Shown: positions 2,359-53,890 of the stretch, piece by piece
Position numbering within the stretch: the first letter of the stretch is position 1
How the letters are laid out: each line of letters opens with the position of its first letter
From: Thermoplasmatota archaeon
GTDB lineage: Archaea; Thermoplasmatota; SW-10-69-26; JACQPN01; JAJPHT01
Direction of reading: 5' to 3'
NCBI GenBank assembly: GCA_035540375.1
Contig: DATLGO010000048.1
Span: forward strand, 27,772 to 91,771
Length of the DNA stretch: 64,000 nt
The notes under the pieces: generated by a model
What the model saw: the letters and a program-made list of their open reading frames with translations, nothing else
Database searches by the model: none
Told to the model about the DNA's origin: nothing
Translations under genes and position numbers: made by a program

Positions 2359-3255
2359 TTGACGACGAAGGTCGGCTTCGTGGGCGCGGGCAAGATCGGC
2401 TCGAACGCCGTGTACTCGACGCTCCACCGCGTGGACGTGGACGAGATCGCGATCGTGGACATCGTGGAGAACCTCGCGGTCGGCGAGGCGATGGACCTCA
2501 ACACGGCGGCCGCGGGCCTCGGCAAGCGCACGCGCGTCGTGGGCGGCACGGACTACGCGCTCCTCAAGGGCGCGAAGGTCGTCGTCGTCTCCGCGGGCCT
2601 CGCGCGCAAGCCCGGCATGACGCGCGAAGACCTCCTCGCGAAGAACGCGGGCATCGTCAAGGACATCACGGCGAAGGTCCTCGCCGTCGCGCCCGAGGCG
2701 CAGATCAACTTCGTCACGAACCCCGTCGACCCCCTCGTGTACGCCGCGTGGAAGTCGAGCGGCAAGCCCCGCTCCCAGATCTACGGCATGGGCGCGCTCC
2801 ACGACTCGATGCGCCTCTGGGACGTCCTCCGCGACTCCGTGAAGGCGCCCGTGTGGAACGACGCGTGGATCCTCGGCAACCACGGCGAGCAGATGTTCCC
2901 CGCGGCGGGCCTCGCGCGCACGGGCGGCGCGAAGGTCGACTGGGCTCAGGCCAAGGAAGCGGTCCGGGGCCGCGCGGCGAGCATCATCGAGAAGAAGGGC
3001 GCGACCTACTACGCGCCCGGGATCGCCATCTCGCAGATGGTCCAGGCCGCACTCGGCCAGGGCCCGAAGCAGTTCATCCCCGTCGTGTGCGTCCTCGACG
3101 GAGAGTACGGCCAGCAGGACGTCGCCCTCGGCGTCCCCGCGATCCTCTCCGAGCGCGGCGTCGAGAAGGTCATCGACCTCCCCCTCAAGGGCGAGGATGC
3201 CGACTGGATGGCCTCCGCGGCGAAGGCCGTGAAGGACCAGATCGGGCAGATCTAG
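2359..3255 (+). CDS. mdh: malate/L-lactate dehydrogenase (LDH/MDH family)
   Basis: KVGFVGAGKIGS (NAD-binding GxGxxG), VVVSAGLARKPGMTREDLL and ILGNHGE catalytic-His region. The probable TTG start is at 2359; the track ORF from 2290 carries an unlikely Arg-rich leader. Confidence 0.85.
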   Translation: MTTKVGFVGAGKIGSNAVYSTLHRVDVDEIAIVDIVENLAVGEAMDLNTAAAGLGKRTRVVGGTDYALLKGAKVVVVSAGLARKPGMTREDLLAKNAGIVKDITAKVLAVAPEAQINFVTNPVDPLVYAAWKSSGKPRSQIYGMGALHDSMRLWDVLRDSVKAPVWNDAWILGNHGEQMFPAAGLARTGGAKVDWAQAKEAVRGRAASIIEKKGATYYAPGIAISQMVQAALGQGPKQFIPVVCVLDGEYGQQDVALGVPAILSERGVEKVIDLPLKGEDADWMASAAKAVKDQIGQI

Positions 3256-3290
3256 CACCATTGAGTTCGGGGCCTTCAGCGGGCACTCCG

Positions 3291-3318
3291 TCGCACAGCG
3301 CTGCGGCGCTGTGCGACT
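3291..3318 (+). terminator. perfect 12-bp stem hairpin (gtcgcacagcgc-tgcg-gcgctgtgcgac) just after the mdh stop
   Basis: The inverted repeat was read directly from the sequence. It is intergenic between convergent genes. Confidence 0.45.
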
Positions 3319-3433
3319 GCGTGCCAAGGGAGGGTGCTATCCGCCCCCTCCCTTGACCCTCCCGTGGACCAGGGGGCTCGCGCCCCCTGGACCCCCGACC
3401 CAAACCCGCGTTTTCCTGACGAACGAGGCCCGG

Positions 3434-3522
3434 GTTTTGCGGCCCCCCTTCCGCCATGCTCGGGTTCTACGGCCCCCTTCCGCCATGCTCGGGTTCTGTG
3501 GCCCCCTTCTACGCCTGCTCGA
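3434..3522. repeat. three contiguous ~29-nt tandem repeats (gggttctNNggccccc(c)ttccgccatgctc), the third degenerate
   Basis: Read directly from the sequence. It lies in the convergent intergenic region between mdh and the e2b2-family gene. Confidence 0.6.
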
Positions 3523-3624
3523 GGTGCGGCCCCCTCTGAAGGACGACGGCGTGTTACATTTGCGCATCGTCGAGGGTGAGCACCTTGCTCGTCCGACGAA
3601 TCGGCTCGACGGAGGGGTCCGGGC

Positions 3625-4533
3625 TCAGAGTTCCCAGGTCTTCCGCGCGAGGTCGCCGACGGTCGCGGGCGCGGCGGGGCCGAGCTCCGTGAGCGTCTCC
3701 GCGATCCAGGCCGCGGGGGTGACGTCGAAGACGGGGTTCAGGATGCGCACGCCCGGCGCGAGTTCGCCCTCCCGCGCGACCTCCGCGCTTTCGCGCTCCT
3801 CGATCGGGACGTCGCGCCCCGCGCGCGAGGCGAGGTCGACCTTGTACGTCTCCGCGCAGACGCGGAAGGGCTTCCCGTGCGCGCGGGCCGCGAGGGCGAC
3901 CGCGCTCGTGCCGACCTTGTTCACGACGTCGCCGTTCATCGCGACGGTGTCCGCGCCCACGAACACGCCGTCGAGCGTCGGCATGAGGTGCAAGACCGCG
4001 CTGTCGACGACGTACGTCGTCGCGATGCCCGCCTCGACAAGCTCCTTCGTCGTGAGGAGCCCCTGCCGCCACGGCCGCGTCTCGGTCGCGAAGACCTCGA
4101 ACGCGAGGCCCCGCCGCGCGCCTTCGCGGAAGACCGCGAGGGCGGCCTGGCTGTTGCAGTGCGTGAGGTAGCGACCGCCCTCGCGCAGCCGGTCGGCGCC
4201 GTGCGCGCCGATTGCGGCGACGGCCTTCTCGCTGCGGTCCGAGAATTCCTTCGCGGCCACGCGGAGCGCCTGCCGGGCCGCCTCCTCGCCGCGCGGGAGC
4301 GCGCCGCGCGCGCGACGGACCACGAACGCGACGGCATTCATGAGGGACACGGCCGAGGGGCGGGTCGCCATGAGCGTCGCGGCGGCGCGCTCGAGTTCGC
4401 GCGCGAAGTTCTCGCCGCGGAAATCGGATTCCCACACGGCGAGGGCTTCGGCGGCGTAGCGGCCGATCTTCCCCGCGCCGCGCACGCGCATGCTGCGGAT
4501 GTCTTCGGCCATGGAGGCGAGCGAACGGTCCAT
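3625..4533 (-). CDS. ribose-1,5-bisphosphate isomerase (eIF-2B alpha/beta/delta-like, e2b2 family)
   Basis: MDRSLASMAEDIRSMRVRGAGKIGRYAAEAL...THCNSQAALAVF...VGADTVAMNGDVVNKVGT is the eIF2B-like isomerase family. The start is set at the internal Met; the upstream Pro/Gly-rich extension of the track ORF is a translated simple repeat. Confidence 0.8.
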   Translation of the reverse strand: MDRSLASMAEDIRSMRVRGAGKIGRYAAEALAVWESDFRGENFARELERAAATLMATRPSAVSLMNAVAFVVRRARGALPRGEEAARQALRVAAKEFSDRSEKAVAAIGAHGADRLREGGRYLTHCNSQAALAVFREGARRGLAFEVFATETRPWRQGLLTTKELVEAGIATTYVVDSAVLHLMPTLDGVFVGADTVAMNGDVVNKVGTSAVALAARAHGKPFRVCAETYKVDLASRAGRDVPIEERESAEVAREGELAPGVRILNPVFDVTPAAWIAETLTELGPAAPATVGDLARKTWEL

Positions 4534-4589
4534 GATGCGGAATCCTTCGGCGTCCGCGCCGAATAACCTTGCGGCTTCGTCCGCGCGGA

Positions 4590-4800
4590 TCGGTCCCGGA
4601 CCCGGACCCGGGCCCGACGCCCGGCGCCCGGACCCGACGCCCGAGCCCGGTCCCGACGCCCGACACCCGACGCCCGGACCCGGTCCCGAATCCCGGACCC
4701 GGTCCCGAATCCCGGCGCCCGGCTCCCGGGCCCGGTTCCCGAATCCCGGGCCCGGCCCCCGGCGCCCGGCACCTGACGCCCGGTCCCGGGACCCGATCCC
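4590..4800. repeat. about 210 bp of low-complexity cccgg(a/c)/cccgacg hexamer-like repeats
   Basis: Runs of ggacccggacccgggcccgacgcccggcgcccggacccgacgcccgagcccggtcccgacgcc... lie directly upstream of the e2b2-family start. Confidence 0.6.
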
Positions 4801-5451
4801 GGCAAGCACTTTCAGCCCACCCCCTCCCTCGAAGCTATCGCGGCGGCGCGCCTCGTCGGGGTTGGAGATGCACCCCTTGGACCTCCTCCTCTGCGAAACC
4901 GGGTCCCGTTGCTCCGACTGTCACTGGTGGACCGCGCGCGGCTGCTCGCTCTTGGCGCGCCTCGACGCGGCCACCGAACAGCTCACCGCCGCCGCGCGCC
5001 CGACCCGCGCGGCGCCCATCCCTGTCATGCCGGCGGCCACGGCCGTCGCCTGACCCGCATCCCCGACACGAACCCGGAAGGCGCGCTCCGCCCCCGTCCG
5101 TACGATGGATGGGAGGGCATCCCTAAGGCTGTGCTTCCAACCGCGCCTTCCGGGGTTCGTCGTGTCGACGCGCGGCTCGTTCGTCACACCCCCTCGAGCA
5201 GAGGCGGCGAGCCGGATATGCGTCCGACGCCGTTCGAGACGATCTTCCATCTGGGGCTTTGCAAAGCACATGGGGACGTGGACGTCGATGGAAACGAAAG
5301 AGCCATCTCTGAAATCCCATGAAACAGCGTTTACGCTCCCGCGGGGAGAGGACGAACCAGAGATCGTATGGCCGATCATCAGTCCACAGGCGTCGTTTCC
5401 ATCACGTGTCGCCGAGGAGCGGTCGCTAGAACAACCAAGGATGCCAATCCA

Positions 5452-6864
5452 TCAACGACAGTAGGGATGATCTCGATAACTTGGGAAGTCAGGTTGGGAT
5501 CTTCGTTGATTCGTGGACCAAATATCCTTAGGAACATCCAAGAATACGAATGAGCCGTCCCGGAGGTCCAGGATGACGATTCTTGCGCGAAGCGACCGGT
5601 TGTCGAGGAAAAACAGGGCGTACTCGTAATGATCCATGTAGACCTTTGGCTGCCGGCCGAAGGTCGTAATATTGGTGATCTGGGCGTCCCGCAAGTTCAT
5701 CATGATGGCGACGCGCTCTCGCGCGGCATCCAATGGGAGAATGAGGGAGTTGTCGGTGTCGCGGGGAGGCGCGCGCACCATGGGAGTCTTCGAGATAACC
5801 TTGAGCGTTTCGCGTTCACCCACGAGCGGGAGTGGGTTGTTTAGGATATCCTTCTGAACCTTGAATTCAAGGGCGGCCGTGGAGGCGGTCGACTGCAGCA
5901 AGATCGTCATGGTATAGGTCTCTCTGTCGACGTTTCCAACGACGCGGGAGCATCCCGCGTAAGCAAAGCGAGCCGATTGAATCGCCGCAGAGGGGTGCGC
6001 CCGCAGGAATCGCTCGACATCGCCGTCATGTTCGCGAGCCCATTCCAGGGCCTCCGCGATCCCGATCGGGCCCGGTTCTCCTTCGGGCAATTCTCGACCT
6101 CGCATGCGCGCCAGTTCTACTGGCGGCACCGCCCGGTGTTCATGGGCCGTGGAAATGATTCCGCCCTGCCCCCGCGCGTATTGTTGAAGCGTAAATTTGT
6201 AGGGGCCGCTTCGGATCGCGGTCGGAAATGGAACGCCATCACACAGGGTTACCGCGCCCTCTCGAATCAACCACGGAGAGATGCCGCTCGACCAGGTGGA
6301 TCCACCGCCCGTGGCCGGCGCCGAAACTTCGATCAACCGACAGCCGTGAGAACTCCCTGCAGGGGCCGGGATAGAACGATACCGAGGATCGAGGGCATTC
6401 AGAGCGGGCCCTGCGTCGCCGCGGAGGCGCCCGAAGAGGGGACCTACGCCGAGGAAGCTCGGCGTTCCCCGCATGCCGTAGTTTATGACCGTCCGCCCCG
6501 CTTCACACGTTTCCATGCTCTCTTCGTCGTATCGGCAGCCATAATCAACGGCGATGAGATTGCCTTCGCCATCGAGATATTCCGTGTGGTGAGGCGGAAA
6601 TCCGTGACCCTCAATTTCACCGTCGAACCCCACGTCGAGGCGATGCGCTTCCGCCTCCCGCCCAAACCGATCGAGGAAAGGCGACCTCGGGCCTACGGCC
6701 AACTTCAAGCTACCTTCAACAGGCCCGGTCACATTGAAAACTGCCCAGGATCCTTCCTCGAGAGCAGGCAGCGTCCACGCATCGGTCGCGGTGAAACAAC
6801 CGATGAAGGAAGGCGCGAGGACAACGATGGCCCACGCCGACCGTTGCTTCAACAGGCCCCCCAC
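5452..6864 (-). CDS. secreted hypothetical protein (N-terminal signal peptide)
   Basis: 470-aa ORF with an N-terminal hydrophobic signal (MGGLLKQRSAWAIVVLAPSFIGCFTA). It lies in a GC-poor (~50%) island and overlaps the upstream gene by 16 nt. Confidence 0.5.
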   Translation of the reverse strand: MGGLLKQRSAWAIVVLAPSFIGCFTATDAWTLPALEEGSWAVFNVTGPVEGSLKLAVGPRSPFLDRFGREAEAHRLDVGFDGEIEGHGFPPHHTEYLDGEGNLIAVDYGCRYDEESMETCEAGRTVINYGMRGTPSFLGVGPLFGRLRGDAGPALNALDPRYRSIPAPAGSSHGCRLIEVSAPATGGGSTWSSGISPWLIREGAVTLCDGVPFPTAIRSGPYKFTLQQYARGQGGIISTAHEHRAVPPVELARMRGRELPEGEPGPIGIAEALEWAREHDGDVERFLRAHPSAAIQSARFAYAGCSRVVGNVDRETYTMTILLQSTASTAALEFKVQKDILNNPLPLVGERETLKVISKTPMVRAPPRDTDNSLILPLDAARERVAIMMNLRDAQITNITTFGRQPKVYMDHYEYALFFLDNRSLRARIVILDLRDGSFVFLDVPKDIWSTNQRRSQPDFPSYRDHPYCR

Positions 6865-7382
6865 TCGGCAGGTTGGGAAACGGACTCCAGATCACCCCAC
6901 GAGGAGGCCGTTGCCTCCGCCATGGCGCACACCCATTCGATGTCCGGGGCGCCAATATACCCAACGAGAAGGCCGGCGCCGCAGGGATCTGCGCTTGCCG
7001 GCATGTTCGAACATGTGTCGGTGCGCGTCACCTCGGAAACCACGCCTCCCGTCATCTTGAACGTGGCCGTCAACACGGCACTCTCAACCGGCCCGGTCAC
7101 GGAAGCTGCGGCCTCGATTCGCCGCGACCCCCAGATGTTGATCCAGGTCTCTACGCAGATGGATAGGCCGCAGGAGGGCGGATTCGAGAAGCACTCCGTC
7201 GTCGGAACGTTCTCGGCGTTGCACCCGTAGCACGAGGGTCCCGTCTCATCCGCCGCGCAGGGTCCGCATCCGACCATGGCTTCGTTCTCGTCCACGTAGC
7301 AACTGTCGACGCCGGTCTCCGCACCTGTGGAAGGGAGATTGACCGCAAGTAGAACGAAGGCGATGAGCATCGGGGCTTTCAT
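6849..7382 (-). CDS. small Cys-rich secreted protein
   Basis: Signal peptide MKAPMLIAFVLLAVNLPSTGA, then about 16 Cys in ~165 aa (CYVDENEAMVGCGPCAADETGPSCYGCNAENVPTTECFSNPPSCGLSIC). Confidence 0.45.
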   Translation of the reverse strand: MKAPMLIAFVLLAVNLPSTGAETGVDSCYVDENEAMVGCGPCAADETGPSCYGCNAENVPTTECFSNPPSCGLSICVETWINIWGSRRIEAAASVTGPVESAVLTATFKMTGGVVSEVTRTDTCSNMPASADPCGAGLLVGYIGAPDIEWVCAMAEATASSWGDLESVSQPAEWGAC

Positions 7383-7437
7383 CACATCCGACAAGACCCC
7401 CCCCGCATCAATGTTGCGCGGGCCCGATCATGTCAGG

Positions 7438-8556
7438 TCACAATCGGAATCTTTCGAAGAACCCCTTCCGCCGCTCGGTTCCGTCGAGCTCCGCGAGCGC
7501 CTCGAGGAGCTTGCGCTGTTCGCTCGAGAGCTTCGTGGGCGTGTACACCTTCGCGTGCACGAGGAGGTCGCCGCGCGCGGGGCGGCCGAGCGTCGGGAGG
7601 CCCCTGCCGCGGATCGTGAACACCTCGCCGGCCTGCGTGCCGGCGGGAATCGCGAGCGTCTCGCGGCCGCCGCCGAGGAGCGGCACGTCGAGCGTGTCGC
7701 CGAGGGCGGCCTGGCTGAACGTGAGCGGGACGACGACGTGCAGGTTCTCGCGCTCGCGCGTGAACGTCGCGTGCTCCCTCACGCGGATCGTCGCGTAGAG
7801 GTCGCCCGAGGGCGCGCCGCGCGGGCCCGCGTCGCCTTCGCCGCGCAATCGGAGGTTCATGCCCGACTCGACGCCGGGCGGGATGCGGACCGTGAGGCGG
7901 CGGCGTTCGCGCGCGAGGCCCGCGCCCTGGCACGTCGCGCAGGGGTCGCGCACGAGCACGCCGCGGCCGCGGCAGTCGGGGCACGCGCCGACCTGCGTCA
8001 TGACGCCGAACGGCGTGCGCGCCATGCGGCGGATCTCGCCCGTCGCGTCGCACGTCGGGCAGCGGACCGCGCCGCGGCCGCCCTTCCGGGCGCCGGACCC
8101 GTCGCAGGCGGCGCAGGATTCGAGGCGGGCGACCTCCACCGTCTTCTCGGCGCCCTCGAGGACGTCCTCGAGCGTGACCTCGAGCGGAACCTGGAGGTCC
8201 GCGCCGCCCGCGGGGCCGCGGCCCGCGAAGCCGCCGCGGCCGCCGAAGAAGGCGCGGAGGATCGAGTCGAGGTCGAAGCCGAACTCGCCGAAGTCGGCGC
8301 CGCGGAAGATGTCCTCCTCCGAGTAGCGCTGGTCGAAACCCGCGTGACCGTGGCGGTCGTACACCTGGCGCTTCTCGTCGTCCGAGAGCACGGCGTACGC
8401 TTCCGAGACCTCCTTGAAGCGCTCCTCGGCGCCGGCCTCTTTGTTGCGGTCCGGGTGGAGCTTCAGCGCGAGCTGGCGGTACGCCTTCTTGATCTCGTCC
8501 TTCGAGGCGCCCTTCGCGAGGCCGAGGATCTCATAGTAGTCGCGCTTCGACGGCAT
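7438..8556 (-). CDS. dnaJ: chaperone DnaJ
   Basis: J domain (DYYEILGLAKGASKDEIKKAYRQLALKLHPDRN), a G/F region, four CxxCxGxG zinc-finger repeats and a C-terminal domain. The start is at the internal Met of the track ORF. Confidence 0.95.
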   Translation of the reverse strand: MPSKRDYYEILGLAKGASKDEIKKAYRQLALKLHPDRNKEAGAEERFKEVSEAYAVLSDDEKRQVYDRHGHAGFDQRYSEEDIFRGADFGEFGFDLDSILRAFFGGRGGFAGRGPAGGADLQVPLEVTLEDVLEGAEKTVEVARLESCAACDGSGARKGGRGAVRCPTCDATGEIRRMARTPFGVMTQVGACPDCRGRGVLVRDPCATCQGAGLARERRRLTVRIPPGVESGMNLRLRGEGDAGPRGAPSGDLYATIRVREHATFTRERENLHVVVPLTFSQAALGDTLDVPLLGGGRETLAIPAGTQAGEVFTIRGRGLPTLGRPARGDLLVHAKVYTPTKLSSEQRKLLEALAELDGTERRKGFFERFRL

Positions 8557-8678
8557 CCGCAGGTCGGGATGATGGCGAGGACGGCTTGAACCTGACGGAC
8601 GCGCGACCGTTGTTCGAGGTCCCGCATTGGAAAAAAGAGGATCCGCGGCGCGCCTCCGCGGCGCGCCGTGGAGCTGAA

Positions 8679-9560
8679 TCAGGCGTGCCACGCCGTCATG
8701 GCGCCGCCAGCCCACACTTCGACGAGCGGCGTGCAGGAGAGCGGCTCGAACACGGTGACGTGCAGCGCGTTCACGAATTCGCGGGAGTAGGGATTCGCGC
8801 CCGGCGCCCCCTCGTGGATGACCTCGTGCAGGACGATGCGGGCCGCGGGGCACGTCGTGACGACGCTTGGAACGTCGATGACCTGATTCGGGGCCGTCGT
8901 GATCGGCACGTTGATTGAATTCACCGTCAGCGTCGCGACGTGCGAATTCTCCGTGTACCCGACGGACCAGGGCTCGAGCTTCGATTCAGCCCGCAGGACG
9001 CTTGCGCGGATGACGGTCGCGCCGAAACTGATCGTCAGGTCCTCGACTTCGCCGACGCCGCGGAAGGGAATAGGCGCGGCCGAACCGAATTGGGCCTCGC
9101 CGTAACCGTTGAGCGTCGAGGCGTCGATGGTCACCCCAAGGGGCGCAAGGTAGACTCCGAGGACGGTCTCGTCCTCGATCTGGGGCCCTTCGGGCGCGTG
9201 CGCGCGGGCGGGGGCGAAAATCGTCGAGAGCGGCAACCAGGGCGCTGCGACGGCGAGGCCGAAGCCGGCGGCTTCGAAGCCCCGGGCGTAGGTGAAGCAA
9301 TCGACGACATTCCTGTACAGGGGATAACCCTGTGCCTTTTCGTCCTCGCTCGGTCGGACGTGACAGCACGTGTCGCTCTGCAGCAGGCCGAGTTGCCCGA
9401 CGAAGCCTTCGGCACAGGGCGGGGCGCTGCACAGGTGCGCGTGGCCGAGGATGGGCCCGTTGATGTCGTTGCACCGGCCGTGTTCCGCCGCGGCGGGGAC
9501 CGCGACGGGCGCGACGAAAGCGATTGCGAGCAAGCTGATCCAGATGGGTTTTCCGTTCAT
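8679..9560 (-). CDS. secreted hypothetical protein inserted between dnaK and dnaJ
   Basis: Signal peptide MNGKPIWISLLAIAFVAPVAVPAAA. Cys-containing mature protein with no recognised family. Confidence 0.5.
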   Translation of the reverse strand: MNGKPIWISLLAIAFVAPVAVPAAAEHGRCNDINGPILGHAHLCSAPPCAEGFVGQLGLLQSDTCCHVRPSEDEKAQGYPLYRNVVDCFTYARGFEAAGFGLAVAAPWLPLSTIFAPARAHAPEGPQIEDETVLGVYLAPLGVTIDASTLNGYGEAQFGSAAPIPFRGVGEVEDLTISFGATVIRASVLRAESKLEPWSVGYTENSHVATLTVNSINVPITTAPNQVIDVPSVVTTCPAARIVLHEVIHEGAPGANPYSREFVNALHVTVFEPLSCTPLVEVWAGGAMTAWHA

Positions 9561-9673
9561 GGAAGCCTCCCGATGGATCCAACGGGAGCCATCTATGTAA
9601 GGTTGATTGCGCAGACCGGCTTACCCGCGAGCGCCGTCCCCCCGCTCGACGCGCCATCGGAGAACGCTCGTCG

Positions 9674-11617
9674 TTACTTCTTCTCCACGTCGTAGTCGAC
9701 GTCGATCGCGTCGGGGCCCTCGCCCTTCGCGGTGCGCGTCGTGGTCTCGGCGTGCGCGTCGGGCCCCGCGGCGCCCGGCGGGGGCGCGTTCGCGGCGGCC
9801 GCGGCCGCGGCGGCCTGCTGGTAAAGCGCCGCGCCGACCGCCTGGATCGCCTCGGCGAGCTCCTTGGAGCGGTCGCGGATCTCCGAAACGTTCCCGCCCG
9901 CAAGGGCCGCCTTGAGCGCGTCGAGCGCGCCCTGCACCTTGCCCTTCGCGGCGGCGTCGGCCTTGTCGCCGGCCTCGGCGAGCGTGCGCTCCGCGAGGTA
10001 CGCCATCGAGTCGGCTTCGTTCCTGACCTCGATCTCCTCGGCGCGCGCCTTGTCCTCGGCCGCGAAGCGCTCGGCGTCGGCGCGCATGCGCTCGACTTCC
10101 TTCTCGTCGAGGCGCGTCGAGCCCGTGATCGTGATCTGCTGCGCCTTGCCCGTGCCGAGCTCCTTCGCGCTCACGTTGAGGATGCCGTTCGCGTCGATGT
10201 CGAAGCTGACCTCGATCTGAGGGATGCCGCGCGGCGCGGGCGGGATGCCGTCGAGCCGGAAGCGGCCGAGGGACTTGTTGTCCTTCGCGAGCGGCCGCTC
10301 GCCCTGGAGGACGTGGATCTCGACCGTGGTCTGCATGTCGGCCGCGGTCGAGAAGACCTTGCTCCGCTTGGCGGGAATCGTGGTATTGCGCTCGATGAGC
10401 GCCGTCGTGACCCCGCCGAGCGTCTCGATCCCGAGGGTCAGGGGCGTGACGTCGAGGAGCAGGAGGTCCATGACCTCGCCCGTGAGGACCCCGGCCTGGA
10501 TGGCGGCGCCGAGGGCGACGGCCTCGTCGGGGTTCACCGACTTGTTCGGCTCCTTGCCCGTGACGCGCTTCACGAGCTCCTGGACCGCGGGAATGCGGGT
10601 GGATCCGCCGACGAGGATGACCTCGCTGAGGTCCGTGCCCTTGAGGCCCGCGTCGCGCAGCGCCTGCTCGGTGGGTCCGCGGCAGCGCTCGAGGAGATCG
10701 CGGACGAGGTCCTCGAACTTGGCGCGGGTGAGATCGACGTCGACGTGGCGGGGCTGCCCGTCCTTGCCGATCACGATGTAGGGAAGGTTGATGTTCGTCT
10801 TCTGGACCGTCGAGAGCTCCTTCTTCGCCTTCTCGGCGGCTTCGCGCAGGCGCTCGCGGGCGGAGCGGTCCTGGAGGAGGTCGATGCCGTTCTTCGCCTC
10901 AAAGTCCGCGGCGAGGTGGCGCACGATGCGGTCGTCGAAGTCGTCGCCGCCGAGGTGGTTGTCGCCCGCCGTCGCCTTGACCTCGAAGACGCCTTCGCCG
11001 AACTCGAGCACCGACACGTCGAACGTGCCGCCGCCGAGGTCGAAGACGAGCACCGTCTCGCCTTTCTTCTTGTCGAGCCCGTAGGCGAGCGCGCTCGCGG
11101 TGGGCTCGTTCACGATGCGGAGGACCTCGAGGCCCGCGATGCGGCCCGCGTCCTTCGTCGCCTGGCGCTGCGAGTCGTTGAAGTAGGCGGGGACCGTGAT
11201 GACGGCCTTCTCGACCGTCTGGCCGAGGTACGCCTCGGCGTCGCGCTTGAGCTTCTGGAGCACGAACGCGCTGATCTCCTCGGGGCTGAACGCGCGGCCC
11301 TTCGCGGGGATCTGGATCGCGACCTTGCCGGCGTCGCCGCGCGTCGCCTTGTAGGAGACGCGGGCGGCCTCGTCGCGGGTCTCGTCGAACGTGCGGCCCA
11401 TGAAGCGCTTGACGGACGCGACCGTGTTCTCCGGGTTCGCGACCGCCTGGCGCTTCGCGACCTCGCCGACGACGAGCTCGCCTTCCTTGGTGAACGCGAC
11501 GACGGACGGGGTCGTGCGGGCGCCTTCCGCGTTGGGGATGATCTCCGCGTGGCCGCCCTCGATGACGGCGACGGCCGAGTACGTGGTCCCGAGGTCGATG
11601 CCGATGACCTTGCTCAA
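9674..11617 (-). CDS. dnaK: chaperone DnaK (Hsp70)
   Basis: [18 protein letters not shown]..., [12 protein letters not shown] and the full-length 647-aa Hsp70 architecture. Confidence 0.97.
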
Positions 11618-11669: not shown

Positions 11670-12254
11670 TCACGGCTCGCCCGCGGGCTCGTCGGCCGTT
11701 TCGTCGGGCGCGGGCCGCGCCGCGGCGACCTTCACCTTCGCGGGACGCAGGACGCGGCCGCGCAGGCGGTATCCGCGCTCGAGCTCCTTGATGACCACGC
11801 CGGGGGCATAGGCGTCCGTCTCCTCGCGCATGACGGCCTCGTGCACGTTCGCGTCGAAGGGATGCCCTTCGGTGTCGATGCGCTCGATGCCCTCCTTCTC
11901 GAGGAGCGCGCGCATGTCGCGGAAGATGAGGCGCACGCCCTCGTAGAGCGCCTCCTCGGACCCGGACTGCTCGAGGGCCCGGTCCACGTTGTCGAGGATG
12001 GCGAGGAACGGGAGGAGCATCGCCTCGCGGCCCTTCTCGCGCGCTTCGTCGACGTCCTTCCGCGCGCGGCGGCGGAAGTTGTCGAAGTCGGCCTGGAGGC
12101 GGCGCAGCCGGTCCAGGTGCTCGGCGGCCTCGGCGCGGGCCTTCTCGACCTCGGCGCGCGCCGCCGCGAGGTCCGTTTCGAAGCGGGCGCGGGCCTCGTC
12201 CGGGCCCGCGGCCGGGGCGGCGGGGTCGCCCGCGGCTTCCGTCGTGTCCGTCAT
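11670..12254 (-). CDS. grpE: nucleotide exchange factor GrpE
   Basis: The coiled-coil region plus the LLPFLAILDNVDRAL and GHPFDANVHEAV motifs are typical of GrpE. It sits directly upstream of dnaK. Confidence 0.9.
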   Translation of the reverse strand: MTDTTEAAGDPAAPAAGPDEARARFETDLAAARAEVEKARAEAAEHLDRLRRLQADFDNFRRRARKDVDEAREKGREAMLLPFLAILDNVDRALEQSGSEEALYEGVRLIFRDMRALLEKEGIERIDTEGHPFDANVHEAVMREETDAYAPGVVIKELERGYRLRGRVLRPAKVKVAAARPAPDETADEPAGEP

Positions 12255-13043: not shown

Positions 13044-14675
13044 GTGCCGTCCACCGCGAGCCACGATCCCGAAGTCTCCCTGGCCCGCCGGCCCCAGGAC
13101 CTCGCCGGACGGGAGTTCGACCTCGTCGTCATCGGCGGCGGCATCAACGGCACGGGCGTCGCGCGCGACGCGGCCCGCCGCGGCCTCAAGGTGGCGCTTC
13201 TCGAGAAGGAGGACTTCGGCTACGGAACGACCGGCCGCTCCACGCGCCTCATCCACGGCGGCCTCAGGTACCTCGCGATGCTCGACTTCGGGCTCGTGCG
13301 GGAGTCGCTGCGCGAACGCGAGATGCTCCTCAGGAACGCGCCGCACCTCGTCGAGCCGCTCGCGTTTCTCGTTCCGCTCTACAAGGGCATCTCGCCGGGC
13401 AAGACGAAGCTCAAGGCGGGCCTCACGCTCTACGACGCGCTCTCCTACGACAAGCGGATGCCCGCGCACCGTTTCCTCTCGAAGGACGAGACGCTCGCCG
13501 AAGAGCCTTCGCTCAACCCCGAGGGGCTCGACGGCGCGCTCCTCTACTACGACGCGCAGGTGCCGCTCGTCGAGCGGCTGTGCCTCGAGAACGCTCTCGA
13601 CGCGGCCGCGCACGGCGCGGTCGTCGTGAACCACCTTCTTGTGCTCGACTTCGTGCGCGAGGGCACGTCGATCGCGGGCGTGCGCGTGAAGGACCGCCTC
13701 TCGGGCCGCGAGGACGTCGTGCGCGCGAAGACCGTCGTGAATGCGACGGGGCCGTGGCTGAACGTCCTCGACGTGCACGTGGAGGACAAGCGCCTGCGCA
13801 TGACGAAGGGCATCCACATCGTCGTGCCGCCCGTCGTGAGGCACGCGGTCGTGCTCTTTGCCGAGGACGGGCGCCTCTTCTTCGCCATCCCTTGGCTCGG
13901 GCGCACGCTCGTCGGCACGACCGACACGGACTACGCCGGCGACCTCGACAAGGTCGCGGCGACCCGCGAGGAGGTCGACTACCTCGTCGAAAGCGCGCGC
14001 CGCATCATTCCGGGCGCCGACGTCTCGGGCGTCCAGTTCACGTGGGCGGGCGTCCGCAGCCTTCTCAACGTGGAAGGGGTGAAGGAGGGCGCGGTGACGC
14101 GCAAGCATTTCGTGATCGACCACGCGAAGGAGGGCGTCCACGGCCTCTTCTCGATCGTCGGCGGCAAGATCACGCCGTACCGCGGCGTCGCCGAGGAGGT
14201 CGTCGACAAGGTCGCGAAGGCGCTCAAGGTGCGCGCCGCGTGCGACACCGGGAAAGCGCCCCTGCCCGGCGCGCTCGACCCGGACGGCCAGGCCGCGTGG
14301 GTCGCCGAGGCCGCGGCGAAGCGACCCGGGTTCCCGGTCGCCTCCCTCGAGCACCTCGCGAGGGTCTACGGGCGGCGCGCGGGCGCCGTGCTCGCCCTCG
14401 CCGACCAGGACCCGACGCTCTCGTCGACCGTGTGCGCGCATTCGCCGACCCTCAAGGCGGAGGCCGTCTTCGCGGCCCGCCACGAGGCGGCCCATACGCT
14501 TGCGGACGTGATCCTGCGCCGCACGCTCCTCGGCCACGCGCCCTGCGAAGGACGCCACGTCGCGCCCGACGTCGCCGCGCTCATCGCCCCCGTCCTCGGC
14601 TGGGACGACGCGCGCCTGTCCGAGGAGGTCGCCGCCTTCGAGGCGGCGGTCGACCTGCGCCACCTGCACGAGTGA
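13044..14675 (+). CDS. glpA: FAD-dependent glycerol-3-phosphate dehydrogenase (GlpA/GlpD family)
   Basis: FDLVVIGGGINGTGVARDAARRGLKVALLEKEDFGYGTTGRSTRLIHGGLRYL is the N-terminal FAD fold, with full-length similarity across the protein. A GTG start follows the upstream gene's stop; the long 11841..14675 track ORF is a frame read-through artefact. Confidence 0.85.
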   Translation: MPSTASHDPEVSLARRPQDLAGREFDLVVIGGGINGTGVARDAARRGLKVALLEKEDFGYGTTGRSTRLIHGGLRYLAMLDFGLVRESLREREMLLRNAPHLVEPLAFLVPLYKGISPGKTKLKAGLTLYDALSYDKRMPAHRFLSKDETLAEEPSLNPEGLDGALLYYDAQVPLVERLCLENALDAAAHGAVVVNHLLVLDFVREGTSIAGVRVKDRLSGREDVVRAKTVVNATGPWLNVLDVHVEDKRLRMTKGIHIVVPPVVRHAVVLFAEDGRLFFAIPWLGRTLVGTTDTDYAGDLDKVAATREEVDYLVESARRIIPGADVSGVQFTWAGVRSLLNVEGVKEGAVTRKHFVIDHAKEGVHGLFSIVGGKITPYRGVAEEVVDKVAKALKVRAACDTGKAPLPGALDPDGQAAWVAEAAAKRPGFPVASLEHLARVYGRRAGAVLALADQDPTLSSTVCAHSPTLKAEAVFAARHEAAHTLADVILRRTLLGHAPCEGRHVAPDVAALIAPVLGWDDARLSEEVAAFEAAVDLRHLHE

Positions 14676-14692
14676 GCCGGGGAAGGAGTTAA

Positions 14693-16339
<1,647 letters not shown>

Positions 16340-19285: not shown

Positions 19286-19657
19286 TTGCGGCCGCCTCGT
19301 CGCTGGGCTTTTCTGGCCGTCCGCCTTCCCGCCTGCGTGAAGCGCGTCCTTGCCTACGTTCCCGACCTGCTCTTCCGATCGCGCGTGCGCGGCACGGCCT
19401 CGGCCGCGGGCGTCGAGGTCGTGTTCGCGTCGAACGGGCCGGACCTCGCCGCGAAGGCGGCCTCGGGCGGCTTCGACCTCGCGCTCGTGGACCTCCACGC
19501 GCCCGGCGCCCTCGCGCATCTGCCGCGCGGCGTGCGCGTCGTCGGCTTCCACAGCCACGTGGACGTCGCGACGCGACGCGCGGCCGAGGCTGCGGGCGCG
19601 GAAGCGTACACGAACTCCGCCTTCGTCGAGGCCCTGCCGAAGATCCTTCAGGCGTGA
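19286..19657 (+). CDS. stand-alone CheY-like receiver (REC) domain protein, atypical
   Basis: RVLAYVPDLL...GVEVVFASNGPDLAAKAASGGFDLALVDLHAPGALAHL...VRVVGFHSHVD...AGAEAYTNSAFVEALPKIL follows REC topology. The phospho-acceptor Asp context (LALVDL) is present, but the N-terminal acidic pair and the conserved Lys are degenerate. The likely start is GTG near 19340. Confidence 0.4.
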   Translation: MRPPRRWAFLAVRLPACVKRVLAYVPDLLFRSRVRGTASAAGVEVVFASNGPDLAAKAASGGFDLALVDLHAPGALAHLPRGVRVVGFHSHVDVATRRAAEAAGAEAYTNSAFVEALPKILQA

Positions 19658-19724
19658 GCGCGGAAACCCCGTTCGGGGGCCGTCAATCCTTTATGGGGCG
19701 GCGCGCTCAGGAGGAGCGGTCATC

Positions 19725-21167
19725 ATGCCCAAGGTCCGACTCCCCACGCCCCTTCGCCCGTACGCCGGCCACCAGGCCGTCGTCGAGGTCGAAGGCGCGA
19801 ACGTCGGCGAGGTCCTCCGCCGCCTCGTCGCGAAGCACGAAGGCCTGCGCGGGCACCTCTTCGACGAGCGTGGACGGCTGCGTCCGTTCGTGAACGTGTA
19901 CGTCAACCAGGAGGACGTGCGCACGCGCCAGAACGACGCGACCCCCGTCGCCGACGGGGACGTCGTCATGATCGTGCCCGCGGTCGCGGGCGGCGCAGTC
20001 CCCGCGAAGGGCGCGGGCGGCGTCGGGATCCTCGGCCGCGACGAGACGGCCTACTACGCGCGTCACCTCATCCTCCCCGAGGTCGGCCTCAAGGGACAGG
20101 AGAAGCTCAAGCGCGCGAAGGTGCTCCTCGTCGGCACGGGCGGCCTCGGCGCGCCGGCCGCGCTCTACCTCGCGGCCGCGGGCGTGGGCCGCATCGGCCT
20201 CGTCGACTTCGACCGCGTCGAGGCCTCGAACCTGCACCGGCAGGTGCTCTTCTCGGCCTCGGACGTCGGACGACCGAAGGCGGAGGCGGCGGCCGCGCGC
20301 CTGCGCTCGCTCAACCCCCACATCGAGGTGGACGTCCACGACACGACCTTCACGAGCGCGAACGCGCTCGACCTCCTCGCCGGCTACGACATCCTCGTGG
20401 ACGGCACGGACAATTTCCCGACGCGCTACCTCGCGAACGATGCCGCGGTCCTCTCGGGCAAGCCGAACGTCTACGCGAGCATCTTCCGCTTCGAAGGCCA
20501 GGCGTCCGTGTTCGCGACGCGAGACGGACCCTGCTACCGGTGCCTCTACCCCGCGCCGCCGCCGCCCGGCCTCGTGCCGAGCTGCGCCGAAGGCGGCGTC
20601 CTCGGTCTCCTCCCCGGCGTCATGGGCACGATCCAGGGCGTCGAGACCGTGAAGCAGATCCTCGGCATCGGCGAGTCGCTCGCGGGGCGCCTCCTGCTCT
20701 TCGACGCGCTCGGGATGGAATTCACGACGCTCTCGCTGCGCAAGAACCCCGACTGCCCCGCGTGCGGCGCGAAGCCCACGCTCACGGGCCTCATCGACTA
20801 CGAGGAATTCTGCGGCGTCCGCGCCCACGAGGACGCGATTCCCTCGGGCGTGCCCGCGATCGCGCCGCGCGACGTCCACGCGCGCCGCGAGGCGAAGGCC
20901 GACCTCACGCTCGTGGACGTCCGCGAGCCGCACGAATGGGAGATCGGGCGCATCGCGGGCGCGATGCACGTGCCGCTCGGCGAGGTCGTCGCCCGCGCTT
21001 CCGAGATCCCGCAGACGGGCGAGGTCGTGGTCTACTGCCGCTCGGGCGCGCGCAGCGCCCGCGCGACGGAGACGCTGCGGGGCCTCGGCTTCCGCAACGT
21101 CAAGAACCTCGAAGGCGGCATCCTCGCCTGGGCCCGCGACGTCGACCCCACCGTCGCGACGATCTGA
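19725..21167 (+). CDS. fused MoaD/ThiS-like Ubl (ending in GG) + MoeB/ThiF-type E1 adenylyltransferase + C-terminal rhodanese domain
   Basis: Residues 1-90 (MPKVRLPTPLRPYAGHQAVVEVEGANVGEVLRRL...VNVYVNQEDVRTRQNDATPVADGDVVMIVPAVAGG) are the MoaD/SAMP beta-grasp with a terminal Gly-Gly. They continue in frame into the E1 (KVLLVGTGGLGAPAALYLAAAGVGRIGLVDFDRVEASNLHRQ, CxxC...CxxC) and a rhodanese domain (VVVYCRSGARSA active-site Cys). A GGAGG RBS precedes the ATG. Confidence 0.85.
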   Translation: MPKVRLPTPLRPYAGHQAVVEVEGANVGEVLRRLVAKHEGLRGHLFDERGRLRPFVNVYVNQEDVRTRQNDATPVADGDVVMIVPAVAGGAVPAKGAGGVGILGRDETAYYARHLILPEVGLKGQEKLKRAKVLLVGTGGLGAPAALYLAAAGVGRIGLVDFDRVEASNLHRQVLFSASDVGRPKAEAAAARLRSLNPHIEVDVHDTTFTSANALDLLAGYDILVDGTDNFPTRYLANDAAVLSGKPNVYASIFRFEGQASVFATRDGPCYRCLYPAPPPPGLVPSCAEGGVLGLLPGVMGTIQGVETVKQILGIGESLAGRLLLFDALGMEFTTLSLRKNPDCPACGAKPTLTGLIDYEEFCGVRAHEDAIPSGVPAIAPRDVHARREAKADLTLVDVREPHEWEIGRIAGAMHVPLGEVVARASEIPQTGEVVVYCRSGARSARATETLRGLGFRNVKNLEGGILAWARDVDPTVATI

Positions 21168-25816: not shown

Positions 25817-27109
25817 CTACAGGGTGTCCGCGAGCCAGGCGAAACACGCGGGCTCCGGCACGCCCCGGGCAATGGGTGGCGCAAGAAGCAGCGACGGGCA
25901 CCCCGTCGCCTCGCGCTCGAGCGTCACATCGTACACGCCTTCGGTCTCCCCGCGCCAGAGCGTGATCATGAAGTTCGCACCCGCTTCCCCGAGGAGGCGC
26001 CAGCGGACGGCGCAGGGATCGTCGCTCGAGTATCCGACCACGAGGGCGCCTTCGGATTCGACGTTCGCGGCGATCGGTCGGCAATCCCGCGTCCGGATCG
26101 TGAGGATCGCGTGCTCGCCCGCGTCCAGCGTCGCCACGTAGGCGTCCTCGTGGTCGACGTCGTCGATGCATCCCGTCGTCCCGCCGAAGCCGAGGGGGTG
26201 GACGCGGCCGTAGCGGGACGTGTCCCATGACGTGCCGCCATCGCCGATCCCGAGGCAGGCCCGGGGCGCGAGGGGATGGAGCGCGATCGCGAAGCGATAC
26301 GCCGTGCCGATCTCGTCGGTGGTCCGCGCCGTAACATGGTATGTGCCATGGACCCGGCCGAGGTCGATCTCGTGCGGGCCGCAACCGTAGACGAAGATTC
26401 CCGTGTAGGTCTCGAGGCCGGCGTGGAAGCGCACGCGGCAATCGTCGCTCTCGAACCGCACGACGAGGCGGTGATCCTTGGGAACATCGATCCGGTAATC
26501 GTCCTCGTCGTCGTAGCGGTCGAGGCAACCCGTGAACGCACCGGCCGCGAGCCACGGACCGGTATAGGAGGCCGCGTCCTGACCCGTACCCCCGTCGTCC
26601 TGGGGGGTCGGGCAGAATCGGGGCTCCGGCGAGTCCTTGGCAAGGGTCAACCGGTAGGCGCCGTTCCCTTCGATGCGCCACAGGTGGACCGTGTGCGTGC
26701 CGGTGCCCTTCGCGACGTAGGCCACCCGCAGGGCCCCGCATCCGTCGCCGCCATTCTGGTCTTCGGCCGCATATGCGTTCGATATCCACACGAGGAATCG
26801 GCCGCACCCGGTCCGGTCGACGGTGAGGTCGTAGCGGTGGCCCGCCACCGCCCCGAACGTGTAGAAATCGGACGCAGATCCCGCGAACGGTGGTGATTCC
26901 TCGTTGCCGATGCAGCCCTCGTAGGTGCCTTCCGCGATGGCCACAGGGCTCGACTCGGTCGCGTCGCGACCGCTCCCGGCGTCGTCGGAGGCGCTCTCGA
27001 ACGGCGCGCACCAGGGCGAGGCCGCGACGGGACCGGCGGTTCCCGCGGGGGCCGCAAAAAGGAACGCGACGGAGACCAGGAAGGCGAGGCTTCGGAAGAC
27101 GGCCGTCAC
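25817..27109 (-). CDS. secreted protein with 3-4 tandem PPC-like (pre-peptidase C-terminal-type) beta-sandwich repeats
   Basis: Signal peptide MTAVFRSLAFLVSVAFLFAAPAGTAG. Repeated modules containing D-x-Y-x-F/I...G-x-x-Y/H-x-L/V-V...C (for example DFYTFGAVAGHRYDLTVDRTGC and DDYRIDVPKDHRLVVRFESDDC). Confidence 0.55.
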   Translation of the reverse strand: MTAVFRSLAFLVSVAFLFAAPAGTAGPVAASPWCAPFESASDDAGSGRDATESSPVAIAEGTYEGCIGNEESPPFAGSASDFYTFGAVAGHRYDLTVDRTGCGRFLVWISNAYAAEDQNGGDGCGALRVAYVAKGTGTHTVHLWRIEGNGAYRLTLAKDSPEPRFCPTPQDDGGTGQDAASYTGPWLAAGAFTGCLDRYDDEDDYRIDVPKDHRLVVRFESDDCRVRFHAGLETYTGIFVYGCGPHEIDLGRVHGTYHVTARTTDEIGTAYRFAIALHPLAPRACLGIGDGGTSWDTSRYGRVHPLGFGGTTGCIDDVDHEDAYVATLDAGEHAILTIRTRDCRPIAANVESEGALVVGYSSDDPCAVRWRLLGEAGANFMITLWRGETEGVYDVTLEREATGCPSLLLAPPIARGVPEPACFAWLADTL

Positions 27110-52667: not shown

Positions 52668-53890
52668 CTGCTGCCTTTGCCGTAGTTCCGGATCCTTGTC
52701 AGGAGATCCTTGAGGGTATCGTCATCGCTTGCGCCGTTTTCGCCGCGCACGACGCGACGCAACCGGTCGTCGGTCGCGAGGACCGCGAGCGTTTCGGGGG
52801 CGGGCGACTCCTCGCGCACGCCGTGGACGGCCCGCACGCGCTCGCGCGCGAGGCGCGTAATGCGCTCGATCGGGCTCGCCATGGGGGAGGTCCGGACGCG
52901 GGCGAGGCCGCTCCGGTGGTGCGTGAGCCGCTCCTCGGGTTTGACGAGGGCGAGGAGCACCGCGATCGCGAGGCCGAGGGAACCGAGGAAGATCCACTGC
53001 CAGAACGGGTCCTTCGTCGGCACGACGAGCGACGCGAGGCCCGCCGCGGCGAGCCGGGCCTGGGGCGCGGGCGCGTGACGCGATTCGTCGAAGAGGATGG
53101 TTCCGGCGTTCGACCCGCGGGCGAGCGCGTCGGGGAGGGCGAGGGCAAACTTGCGGTTGTCGCTCCCTGCGGCGTCGAGCATCTCGTTCGTGAAGAGGGC
53201 GGGGTCCGCGATGAACATGACGGTGCCGCGGCCGTGCGCGACGACGACCATCTGGGGGAAGGGACCCTTCGTGTCCGTGTCGTCCTTGCGGCGGTTCCCG
53301 TCGTTGTCGAGGTACGAGTCCGGCGAGCTCGTCGCGACGATCCGGGCCGAGGGGTTCGCGCCGGAAAGAAGGCTCGGGCTCACGGTGAGGGCCGTGGGCT
53401 CGTTGAGAAGGAGGTCGAAGGTCAGGTCCTCGCCCTTGCTCGTCGTGAGGAGCGCGCGGGCGCGGGCGAGCGAGACGTTCTTCTGGAAGTTGGAGTCGAG
53501 GAGCGGCACCTTGTCGAAGGTGACGCCGAACTTGACGGCGAGCGTGTTCGCGAAGCCGAAGTCGTCCGCGACCACGAGGACGCCGCCGCGCGTCACGAAG
53601 TCGTCGAACGCCTCGATCTCGGAGGCCGAGTACGGCCGGCTCACGCCGACCGCGAACACGATGTGGGCCGCGGGATCGGAGACGCCGCGCAGCACGAGCG
53701 GCGTCGAGGCGATGGTGTCCGTGTTGTACCCGAGGCCCCCCGCGAGGCTCGCGCGGTACGCGCCGAGATCCGCGCGGCCCGAGCTGTAGGATCCGAGCTC
53801 CGGGGGCGGGGAATAGAGGATCGCGACGACGGCGCCCCCGACAATGAGGGCGGCAAGGAGGACGGCCGCGAGGCCGAGCGCGCGCTTCAC
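52664..53890 (-). CDS. DUF4350-like protein (N-terminal and C-terminal TM helices flanking a large extracytoplasmic domain)
   Basis: The GTG start (VKRALGLAAVLLAALIVGG) overlaps the stop of the giant upstream gene (GTGA). C-terminal TM FWQWIFLGSLGLAIAVLLALV. The stop overlaps the MoxR start (GTGA). The 5' 2.4 kb of the track ORF 52664..56311 overlaps the giant gene out of frame and is rejected. Confidence 0.6.
   Translation of the reverse strand: MKRALGLAAVLLAALIVGGAVVAILYSPPPELGSYSSGRADLGAYRASLAGGLGYNTDTIASTPLVLRGVSDPAAHIVFAVGVSRPYSASEIEAFDDFVTRGGVLVVADDFGFANTLAVKFGVTFDKVPLLDSNFQKNVSLARARALLTTSKGEDLTFDLLLNEPTALTVSPSLLSGANPSARIVATSSPDSYLDNDGNRRKDDTDTKGPFPQMVVVAHGRGTVMFIADPALFTNEMLDAAGSDNRKFALALPDALARGSNAGTILFDESRHAPAPQARLAAAGLASLVVPTKDPFWQWIFLGSLGLAIAVLLALVKPEERLTHHRSGLARVRTSPMASPIERITRLARERVRAVHGVREESPAPETLAVLATDDRLRRVVRGENGASDDDTLKDLLTRIRNYGKGSR

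Follow-up and report, generated by a model that had tools for sequence, protein, structure and literature searches.

How does a stretch of DNA much poorer in GC than its surroundings come to lie at the end of an archaeal chaperone gene cluster, and what do its genes encode? We asked this of a 64,000-nucleotide (nt) stretch of contig DATLGO010000048.1 (assembly GCA_035540375.1, positions 27,772 to 91,771 of the forward strand), which comes from an uncultured soil Thermoplasmatota archaeon and is hereafter called the window. At the 3' end of its grpE-dnaK-dnaJ cluster, the window carries a compositionally atypical islet with two genes, one for a small cysteine-rich protein and one for a larger putative lipoprotein, and we consider it probable that they form a horizontally acquired 2.2-kb cell-surface module. 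The three features are listed below in window coordinates, with protein lengths in amino acids (aa) and the limits of the maximal open reading frames (ORFs):

5216..7461, no strand assigned: compositionally atypical islet, defined as the low-GC segment of maximum log-likelihood ratio (LLR) and by its dinucleotide distance (delta*)
6849..7382, minus strand: gene for the small cysteine-rich secreted protein, a 177-aa precursor; ORF from ATG 7382, maximal ORF from TTG 7394 (181 aa)
5452..6852, minus strand: gene for the putative lipoprotein, 466 aa; TTG start, maximal ORF from GTG 6864 (470 aa)

The window has a GC content of 70.6%, and its 500-nt segments average 0.707 with a standard deviation (sd) of 0.037, the minimum of 0.544 being found at 5201-5700, 4.4 sd under the mean. 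At a resolution of 300 nt, GC drops to 0.52 (5251-5700) and stays at 0.58-0.65 onward to ~7500, so that the only stretch far under the window GC is that at ~5.1-7.5 kb. The maximum-likelihood, or maximum-scoring, low-GC segment covers 5216-7461 (2,246 nt, GC 0.602, LLR 55.7), while the runner-up in the 64 kb reaches an LLR of 13.7 only. A first-pass annotation, made from the sequence alone, had described a GC-poor island at 4810-7437 of about 50% GC compared to about 70% around it. GC is indeed not uniform over sliding windows, and the island is the strongest low-GC segment of the 64 kb, but its span is that given above, and a GC of ~50% is found roughly at 5250-5700, the islet as a whole averaging 60%. 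The interval 4810-7437 averages 62.3%, and the two islet genes 60.0% and 63.2%. The island had also been seen as bracketed by a simple repeat on one side and the dnaJ stop codon on the other. The right edge does fall within ~25 nt of that stop codon (7438-7440), but the left edge is ~420 nt away from the repeat array, and the interval between them (4797-5215) is host-like, with 66-79% GC.

Codon usage sets the two genes apart as well. The GC content at third codon positions (GC3) is 0.67 in the large gene and 0.76 in the small gene, compared to 0.91-0.97 in host genes. On a scale resembling the codon adaptation index (CAI-like index), calibrated by leave-one-out over 32 host genes (0.715 ± 0.072), the large gene scores 0.286 (z -6.0) and the small gene 0.375 (z -4.7), and the codon adaptation check that the first-pass annotation had proposed is hence in favor of a foreign origin. 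Furthermore, expressed as a relative-abundance distance normalised against base composition, the dinucleotide signature gives a delta* of 0.171 for the islet, compared to 0.065 ± 0.021 (maximum, 0.136) for islet-sized background segments, none of which (0 of 115) reaches the islet value. Base composition, codon usage and oligonucleotide signature, by which genomic islands and islets are recognized, are all atypical here. The runner-up segment, second-lowest in GC (24.3-24.9 kb), was considered as another islet and dismissed, since it falls in the 5' end of aEF-1alpha, a gene with a normal GC3 of 0.97. We also dismissed low GC3 as a general property of secreted proteins: because the giant surface-type proteins encoded at 53.9-64 kb have a GC3 of 0.93-0.94, surface location alone is not enough to account for the bias.

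Could the islet be an artefact? Contigs of several independent assemblies, made from different samples, carry the locus and both of its junctions at 100% identity; they include three long ones that span both junctions (ERZ27256751, 70 kb; ERZ27256757, 69.7 kb; JGI 3300028006, 19 kb), and a scan of JGI metagenomes returned identical copies only. An assembly chimera is excluded for practical purposes. More broadly, one may suppose either a chimera of assembly or binning or a non-coding, decayed AT-rich spacer with fortuitous ORFs, and two observations could be taken that way. First, the calls recorded on the long contigs (L097, L098 and L099, from ENA and JGI) omit the 177-aa gene, shorten the 466-aa gene to a 152-aa tail and place an additional 75-aa ORF on the other strand. 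Second, several short contigs end at points from 4640 to 5052, inside the repeat array or a little past it. However, the junctions are the same in at least three long contigs of different samples as well as in several short ones, and the calls on short contigs and the NCBI protein records give both islet genes in full. A 470-codon open frame at 60% GC, where ~3.2% stop codons are expected, has by our own calculation a chance probability of ~2e-7, and the large protein has homologues with conserved motifs, described below. As for the long-contig calls, miscalls of this kind are expected of composition-trained gene finders on foreign DNA, and those seen here are presumably an annotation artefact of the foreign composition. 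We thus regard a chimera or a spacer as extremely improbable. The miscalls illustrate a practical annotation problem, in that one gene was missed and the other shortened on long contigs, presumably through the foreign composition.

We then turn to the products. The 177-aa form of the small protein, initiated at ATG 7382, is that recorded for the NCBI-sourced protein P0129 (HVL47960.1) and also that called on short contigs. It contains 12 cysteines (6.8%), including a CGPC and a CYGC pair, and its last residue is a cysteine. By inspection, its N terminus resembles a signal peptide, MKAPMLIAFVLLAVNLPSTGA/ETG, the slash marking the predicted cut. The protein had no match in Pfam or NCBIfam (E<=1) or in PHROGs, none among PDB sequences at E<=10, and a single PADLOC hit of 9.3 bits (E 0.13); a word-index homology search returned the protein itself only.

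The large gene follows without a gap. The first-pass annotation had reported two secreted proteins whose genes overlap by 16 nt, the second product being 470 aa long. Both ORFs are real, and the maximal ORFs (6849-7394 and 5452-6864) do overlap by 16 nt, the 470-aa form being the one that starts at GTG 6864. The junction, however, reads ...GCC TGT TGA AGC..., so that a start at TTG 6852 gives a 4-nt TTGA stop/start overlap and a product beginning (M)KQRSAW.... This 466-aa form is the one recorded in P0126 (HVL47959.1, NCBI-sourced) and in P0001, and we consider the 4-nt TTGA overlap more likely than the 16-nt one. The N terminus, (M)KQRSAWAIVVLAPSFIG/C, combines a positively charged n-region with a hydrophobic core and a [SF][I][G]-C sequence at residues 15-19. 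As a lipobox criterion we used a regular expression of the PROSITE PS51257 type, [LIVMFWSTAG](2)-[LIVMFYSTAGCQ]-[AGS]-C, near the N terminus after a signal peptide; it is matched by IVVLAPSFIGC (IVVLAPSFIG-C), which ends at residue 19 of the 466-aa form. The assignment of both proteins as secreted is therefore in agreement with their signal-peptide-like N termini, read by inspection, and with the lipobox pattern, although both remain predictions. The protein carries an NVT sequon (residue 40), which recurs in two of the three homologues described next. No match to the large protein was found in Pfam or NCBIfam (E<=1), PHROGs or PADLOC, and the word-index search again returned the query only.

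An exhaustive HMMER search of 1.84 billion (1.84e9) representative proteins found three distant homologues of the large protein only:

P0123: 427 aa, E 2.6e-8
P0124: 463 aa, E 6.3e-6
P0125: 478 aa, E 5.4e-5

With four members at 50% clustering among these representatives, the large-protein family is very rare. It is nevertheless recognizable by sequence, the matches spanning ~250-300 residues with common motifs. In the alignment of the family (A1), the N-terminal signal region is common, a cysteine is conserved within VT(L/F)CDG, a motif of the form W-A-x-E-H-D...F-L-x-x-H-P-S-A lies in the middle of the protein, and a motif x-D-A-T-T-G-x-L-L lies near the C terminus. The putative lipobox cysteine aligns in the window protein, P0123 and P0125. 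The strict lipobox pattern fits the window protein and P0125 only, P0123 having FAG-C and P0124 lacking the cysteine. Like lipobox lipoproteins of the PS51257 type, the window protein and P0125 thus match the pattern; unlike them, the window protein belongs to an archaeon, one family member is without the cysteine, and lipidation is predicted from the pattern. The lipidation machinery of archaea is less well defined than that of bacteria. A search of PDB sequences with the A1 family profile gave a LolB match at E 0.7 only. An internal duplication of N- and C-terminal halves was considered for the family and rejected (hhalign probability, 0.3%; no internal repeat detected).

Is the pairing with a small cysteine-rich protein a property of the family? 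The P0124 gene (locus L090) is preceded by a co-oriented ORF whose 5' part is cut by the contig end; it encodes seven cysteines, the last residue being a cysteine, and its TGA stop shares nucleotides with the ATG that starts the large gene, in the same ...G-x-C-stop/start arrangement as in the window. Similarly, a co-oriented ORF of 125-135 aa lies 65 nt upstream of the P0125 gene (L091/L092); its product has a signal peptide (MACLMVGALIAVPAAHA/TSC...) and seven cysteines. The contig with P0123 (L089) ends 69 nt upstream of that gene. A small cysteine-rich secreted ORF is thus found directly upstream of the large gene, in the same orientation, in the other loci where this region is present (L090 and L091/L092). 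The three small proteins show no detectable similarity to one another in pairwise BLASTP (E 0.9-7). The first-pass annotation had assigned the cassette no function, and this description can be refined to that of a conserved pair consisting of a small cysteine-rich secreted protein and a lipoprotein, whose definition as a rare two-gene module (the large partner measuring ~430-480 aa) is the added value of the present analysis.

The module is compositionally foreign in its other hosts as well, its GC3 being under that of the neighbours in all three loci: 0.72 for P0123 compared to 0.91 for SufB, 0.75 and 0.64 for P0124 and its small partner compared to 0.83-0.86, and 0.79 and 0.82 for P0125 and its small partner compared to 0.94. 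Two of these copies, the diverged paralogues P0123 (L089) and P0124 (L090), come from separate short contigs of a single metagenome-assembled genome (MAG), GCA_041600295.1. The L089 contig has a proteobacterial-type Rrf2/SufB operon: its SufB is ~69% identical to the SufB proteins of Cupriavidus, Azospirillum, Paraburkholderia and Legionella, and its regulator matches TIGR02944 (suf_reg_Xantho) above the cut-off. Because of this SufB identity and this regulator, we place the L089 copy in a bacterial genome, which points to an occurrence of the family in bacteria as well as in the archaeon of the window. Since the family is sparse, is found in an archaeon and, by this assignment, in a bacterium, and is compositionally foreign in each host, horizontal mobility would best explain its distribution.

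We also compared the locus with those of relatives. The best matches to the DnaJ protein of the window are recorded under the name Thermoplasmatota archaeon (58-62% identity), and a scan of GTDB genome representatives with DnaJ found no close relative (best, 47%). The dnaJ loci of six relatives (L084-L086 and L094-L096) were inspected. Synteny of grpE, dnaK and CTP synthase is recognizable on the far side, while the 3' side of dnaJ is different in all six, the window having instead the islet and then an IF-2B-like gene. Two of the relatives (L086 and L096) have a common order of dnaJ, variable genes, a 143/145-aa gene, a methyltransferase, Csl4, RpoL and TruD. The first-pass annotation had suggested looking for the segment in related genomes: hidden Markov model (HMM) and phmmer searches of six-frame translations of the six loci (DnaJ 58-62%) found no homologue of either islet protein, and in this comparison the islet is missing near dnaJ while 3' synteny is not conserved. 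A 652-aa and 138-aa secreted pair located after dnaJ in L096 was considered as a diverged equivalent and rejected (hhalign probability, 0.8%; no HMM hit). In L084, the slot 3' of dnaJ holds a pair of an Xre-family antitoxin and a RES toxin, together with a mechanosensitive channel gene (14539-15422 of that locus), which supports the view that accessory genes have a hotspot here in this clade.

The same region offers grounds for an opposite reading, in which the two genes would be native, lineage-specific, fast evolving and weakly expressed, their low GC3 resulting from relaxed selection or from a local mutational bias. No mobility genes, tRNA genes or att-like repeats were found, as would be expected in that case, and the dnaK-dnaJ neighbourhood of the relatives holds unrelated, lineage-specific secreted ORFans at equivalent positions, suggesting a slot that is generally variable. 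Moreover, a 293-aa secreted protein encoded between dnaK and dnaJ in the window is itself somewhat atypical (GC3 0.85, z -2.5). However, the fall in GC3 from ~0.95 to 0.67, together with the distinct dinucleotide signature, exceeds that of any other gene in the window, and the positional ORFans of L096 have a host-typical GC3 of 0.92-0.94. In addition, the genomic surroundings of the large protein's only homologues are unrelated, and bacterial in one case, and the compositional edge meets the dnaJ stop codon within ~25 nt. On balance, a native origin appears unlikely to us. As to the mobility hallmarks, the first-pass annotation saw neither an integrase nor a transposase, and the picture remains the same after a wider search: no tRNA gene in the 64 kb, only short flanking direct repeats at chance level, and no integrase, transposase or other mobility domain among the neighbouring ORFs scanned, which were not all of the ORFs within 10 kb. 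Neither the window protein nor any of its three homologues had a tblastn match among phages and plasmids, and scans of viral contigs gave nothing.

Horizontal acquisition, which the first-pass annotation had already put forward, is supported by four independent measures of composition (GC, GC3, the CAI-like index and the dinucleotide signature), by the distant relatives without the genes and by the sparse family, whose members are atypical in each of their hosts. The islet indeed resembles small genomic islets in several respects. Its composition changes sharply where a gene ends, GC3 and codon adaptation are low, the dinucleotide signature deviates, the cargo consists of ORFans, and the available relatives lack the islet. 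It is also AT-richer than its host, which is the direction generally reported for transferred DNA. It differs from such islets in that it measures 2.2 kb only, is without an integrase, a tRNA target or direct repeats, and occupies a clade-variable slot where a chaperone operon ends. If acquired as we propose, it is a clean example of a very small gene-transfer islet without mobility genes, and otherwise a fairly ordinary one.

What might the module do? The family shares some features with PepSY proteins (PF03413), namely, a predicted extracytoplasmic location and a C-terminal, beta-hairpin-like xDATTGxLL motif that resembles the end of PepSY. Two homologues hit the Pfam model, P0123 with 18.9 bits and P0124 with 22.3 bits, both under the 24-bit gathering threshold and at different positions, while the window protein gave no hit even at E<=10. 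The family further differs from PepSY proteins in having no attached peptidase or transmembrane domain, and on these sequence comparisons, PepSY membership of the large protein is not established. A literature search on PepSY, lipoprotein and cysteine-rich proteins found nothing usable.

A second lead is that of cysteine-rich secreted antimicrobials with adjacent immunity genes, for example archaeocins of the halocin C8 type and immunity lipoproteins of the LanI type. As in such pairs, a small secreted cysteine-rich product would be followed by a co-transcribed, membrane-associated partner, and the distribution is patchy; unlike in such pairs, there is no Pfam or NCBIfam match, the sizes differ, and processing or export genes are missing from the window. 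The lead would make the module a mobile pair of a secreted cysteine-rich antimicrobial or effector and a surface-anchored immunity or binding lipoprotein, which is a functional refinement of the transfer reading and not an alternative to it. It is consistent with a small partner that has diverged beyond recognition next to a large partner that is still detectable, with the tight coupling of the genes in the order small then large, with two paralogous copies in one MAG, and with a patchy distribution and atypical composition in every host. Likewise, a fragment of an ATP-binding cassette (ABC)-exporter ATPase gene adjoins the L091 copy, and the sub-threshold matches are to PepSY, which Pfam describes as a peptidase-propeptide domain. 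Nevertheless, neither islet protein matched known bacteriocin, halocin or immunity families in Pfam or NCBIfam, and PADLOC gave no such match, nor any match for the homologues of the large protein. With its 466 aa, the protein also exceeds the size one would expect of an immunity protein. The ABC gene beside the L091 copy is incomplete and transcribed divergently, and the window contains no genes for maturation or export. All of the support is circumstantial, and we hold this refinement to be quite unlikely. More speculative, and improbable in our judgment, is the idea of an undescribed mobile module moving between bacteria and archaea and composed of a hyper-variable, disulfide-rich effector and a PepSY-like immunity or receptor lipoprotein. 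If an exchange of effector/immunity or ligand/receptor pairs between bacteria and archaea were true, the module would offer a useful entry point for studies of inter-domain surface biology.

Taking horizontal acquisition as the preferred reading, the following course of events can be proposed. The 2.2-kb segment would have arrived by horizontal transfer at the tail of the Hsp70 chaperone cluster. The dnaJ stop codon and the ATG of the small gene are separated by a 55-nt gap, and because no archaeal TATA-like or AT-rich promoter element is seen there by eye, read-through from dnaJ would be the simplest route of transcription. The TTGA overlap would then couple translation of the large gene to that of the small gene. 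The small precursor would probably be exported by the Sec pathway and its signal peptide cut, leaving a protein of ~156 aa with 12 cysteines and up to six disulfides. The large protein would be lipid anchored at Cys19 on the external side of the membrane and would probably be N-glycosylated. Most likely, the pair would act together at the cell surface, as a soluble cysteine-rich partner and a tethered binding protein.

Several points weigh against this account and are taken into account in our confidence in it. No integrase, transposase, tRNA gene or flanking direct repeats, the usual hallmarks of mobility, were found. The relatives are distant (DnaJ 58-62%), so that a gain here is not separable from a loss elsewhere, and none of them showed an empty site. 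The term conserved module applies, as far as the sequences go, to the architecture and not to the small-protein sequence. The taxonomy of the MAG with P0123 and P0124 was inferred from one 4-kb contig. The export and lipidation calls are predictions made by eye and with a regular expression, and inspection of the gap after dnaJ revealed no archaeal promoter for the proposed transcription of the islet genes. Finally, structure prediction failed: AlphaFold2 models of the large protein had a predicted local distance difference test (pLDDT) score of 34 with the single sequence and 36.5 with the four-sequence alignment, and Foldseek searches of PDB with these low-pLDDT models gave no hit at E<=0.001 and template modelling (TM) scores of <=0.12, an output that is noise.

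The islet and its neighbours are all on the minus strand, in the order grpE, dnaK, the gene of the 293-aa protein, dnaJ, the two islet genes (small, then large), a stretch of ~920 nt lacking a convincing gene, and the IF-2B-family gene. The flanking features are as follows:

11670-12254, minus strand: grpE, host gene
9674-11617, minus strand: dnaK, host gene
8679-9560, minus strand: choice-of-anchor P secreted protein, 293 aa, between dnaK and dnaJ
7438..8556, minus strand: dnaJ, 372 aa, directly upstream of the islet; Pfam DnaJ, DnaJ_CXXCXGXG and DnaJ_C; GC3 0.95
5216..5451, minus strand: AT-rich 3' flank of the islet, delimited by composition; in frame with the large gene past its TGA
4601..4796, minus strand: array of G-tract repeats, GGGNNN(N); Tandem Repeats Finder (TRF) periods 7, 19, 20 and 33; intergenic, outside the islet
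3625..4533, minus strand: eIF-2B-like (IF-2B family) gene, 302 aa on long contigs, from ATG 4533; Pfam IF-2B E 1.4e-72; GC3 0.94

The 3' flank consists of the 236 nt of the islet past the TGA of the large gene. Its frame is open to 4924 (4924-5451, 176 open codons) and encodes ...SVNAVSWDFRDGSFVSIDV..., with a PKD-like SWDFRDGS sequence at ~5281-5379; the match to PKD_4, whose signature is WDFGDG, is weak and under the threshold (E 0.027). A duplicated C terminus of the large gene was considered as the source of this ORF and rejected, a 15-residue match not being significant (E 0.6; family HMM, E 5.4). The flank may have remained from a third gene that came with the insert, or from a longer ancestral protein.

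The repeat array is unique in the window: within 4590-4805, stretches of at least three C (G on the minus strand) occur 31 times, spaced by 6-7 nt, compared to a mean of 3.9 per 216 nt elsewhere. Because most of its TRF periods are not divisible by three, and because the call for the eIF-2B-like gene begins at ATG 4533, we place it in an intergenic position, 60-270 nt upstream of this gene on its coding strand. It is strongly G-quadruplex-prone. An Rfam search (E<=1) over 3000-10000 found nothing.

The 293-aa protein encoded between dnaK and dnaJ has a signal peptide and a match to the NCBIfam choice-of-anchor P model (1.8e-14), with a GC3 of 0.85 and a CAI-like index of 0.539 (z -2.5). It is without a sequence counterpart in the relatives; L086 and L096 hold unrelated secreted proteins of 286-305 aa at this position.

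Elsewhere in the window, two adjacent giant proteins of ~2,197 and ~1,178 aa are encoded on the minus strand at 53887-60480 and 60462-63998, with a 19-nt overlap and a GC3 of 0.93-0.94; they show weak matches to the gliding-motility lipoprotein CglD, to MtsD thrombospondin-like repeats and to choice-of-anchor T. A single 605-aa ORF on the plus strand (19350-21167) carries ThiS, ThiF and rhodanese domains, so that a ubiquitin-like sulfur carrier is joined in one protein with its E1-like activating enzyme. Lastly, the highest background dinucleotide-signature distance (0.11-0.136) is found at 25-28 kb, where a 430-aa ORF without a Pfam match (25817-27109, minus strand) has the lowest CAI-like index among the reference genes (0.565) and may be another, milder atypical gene.

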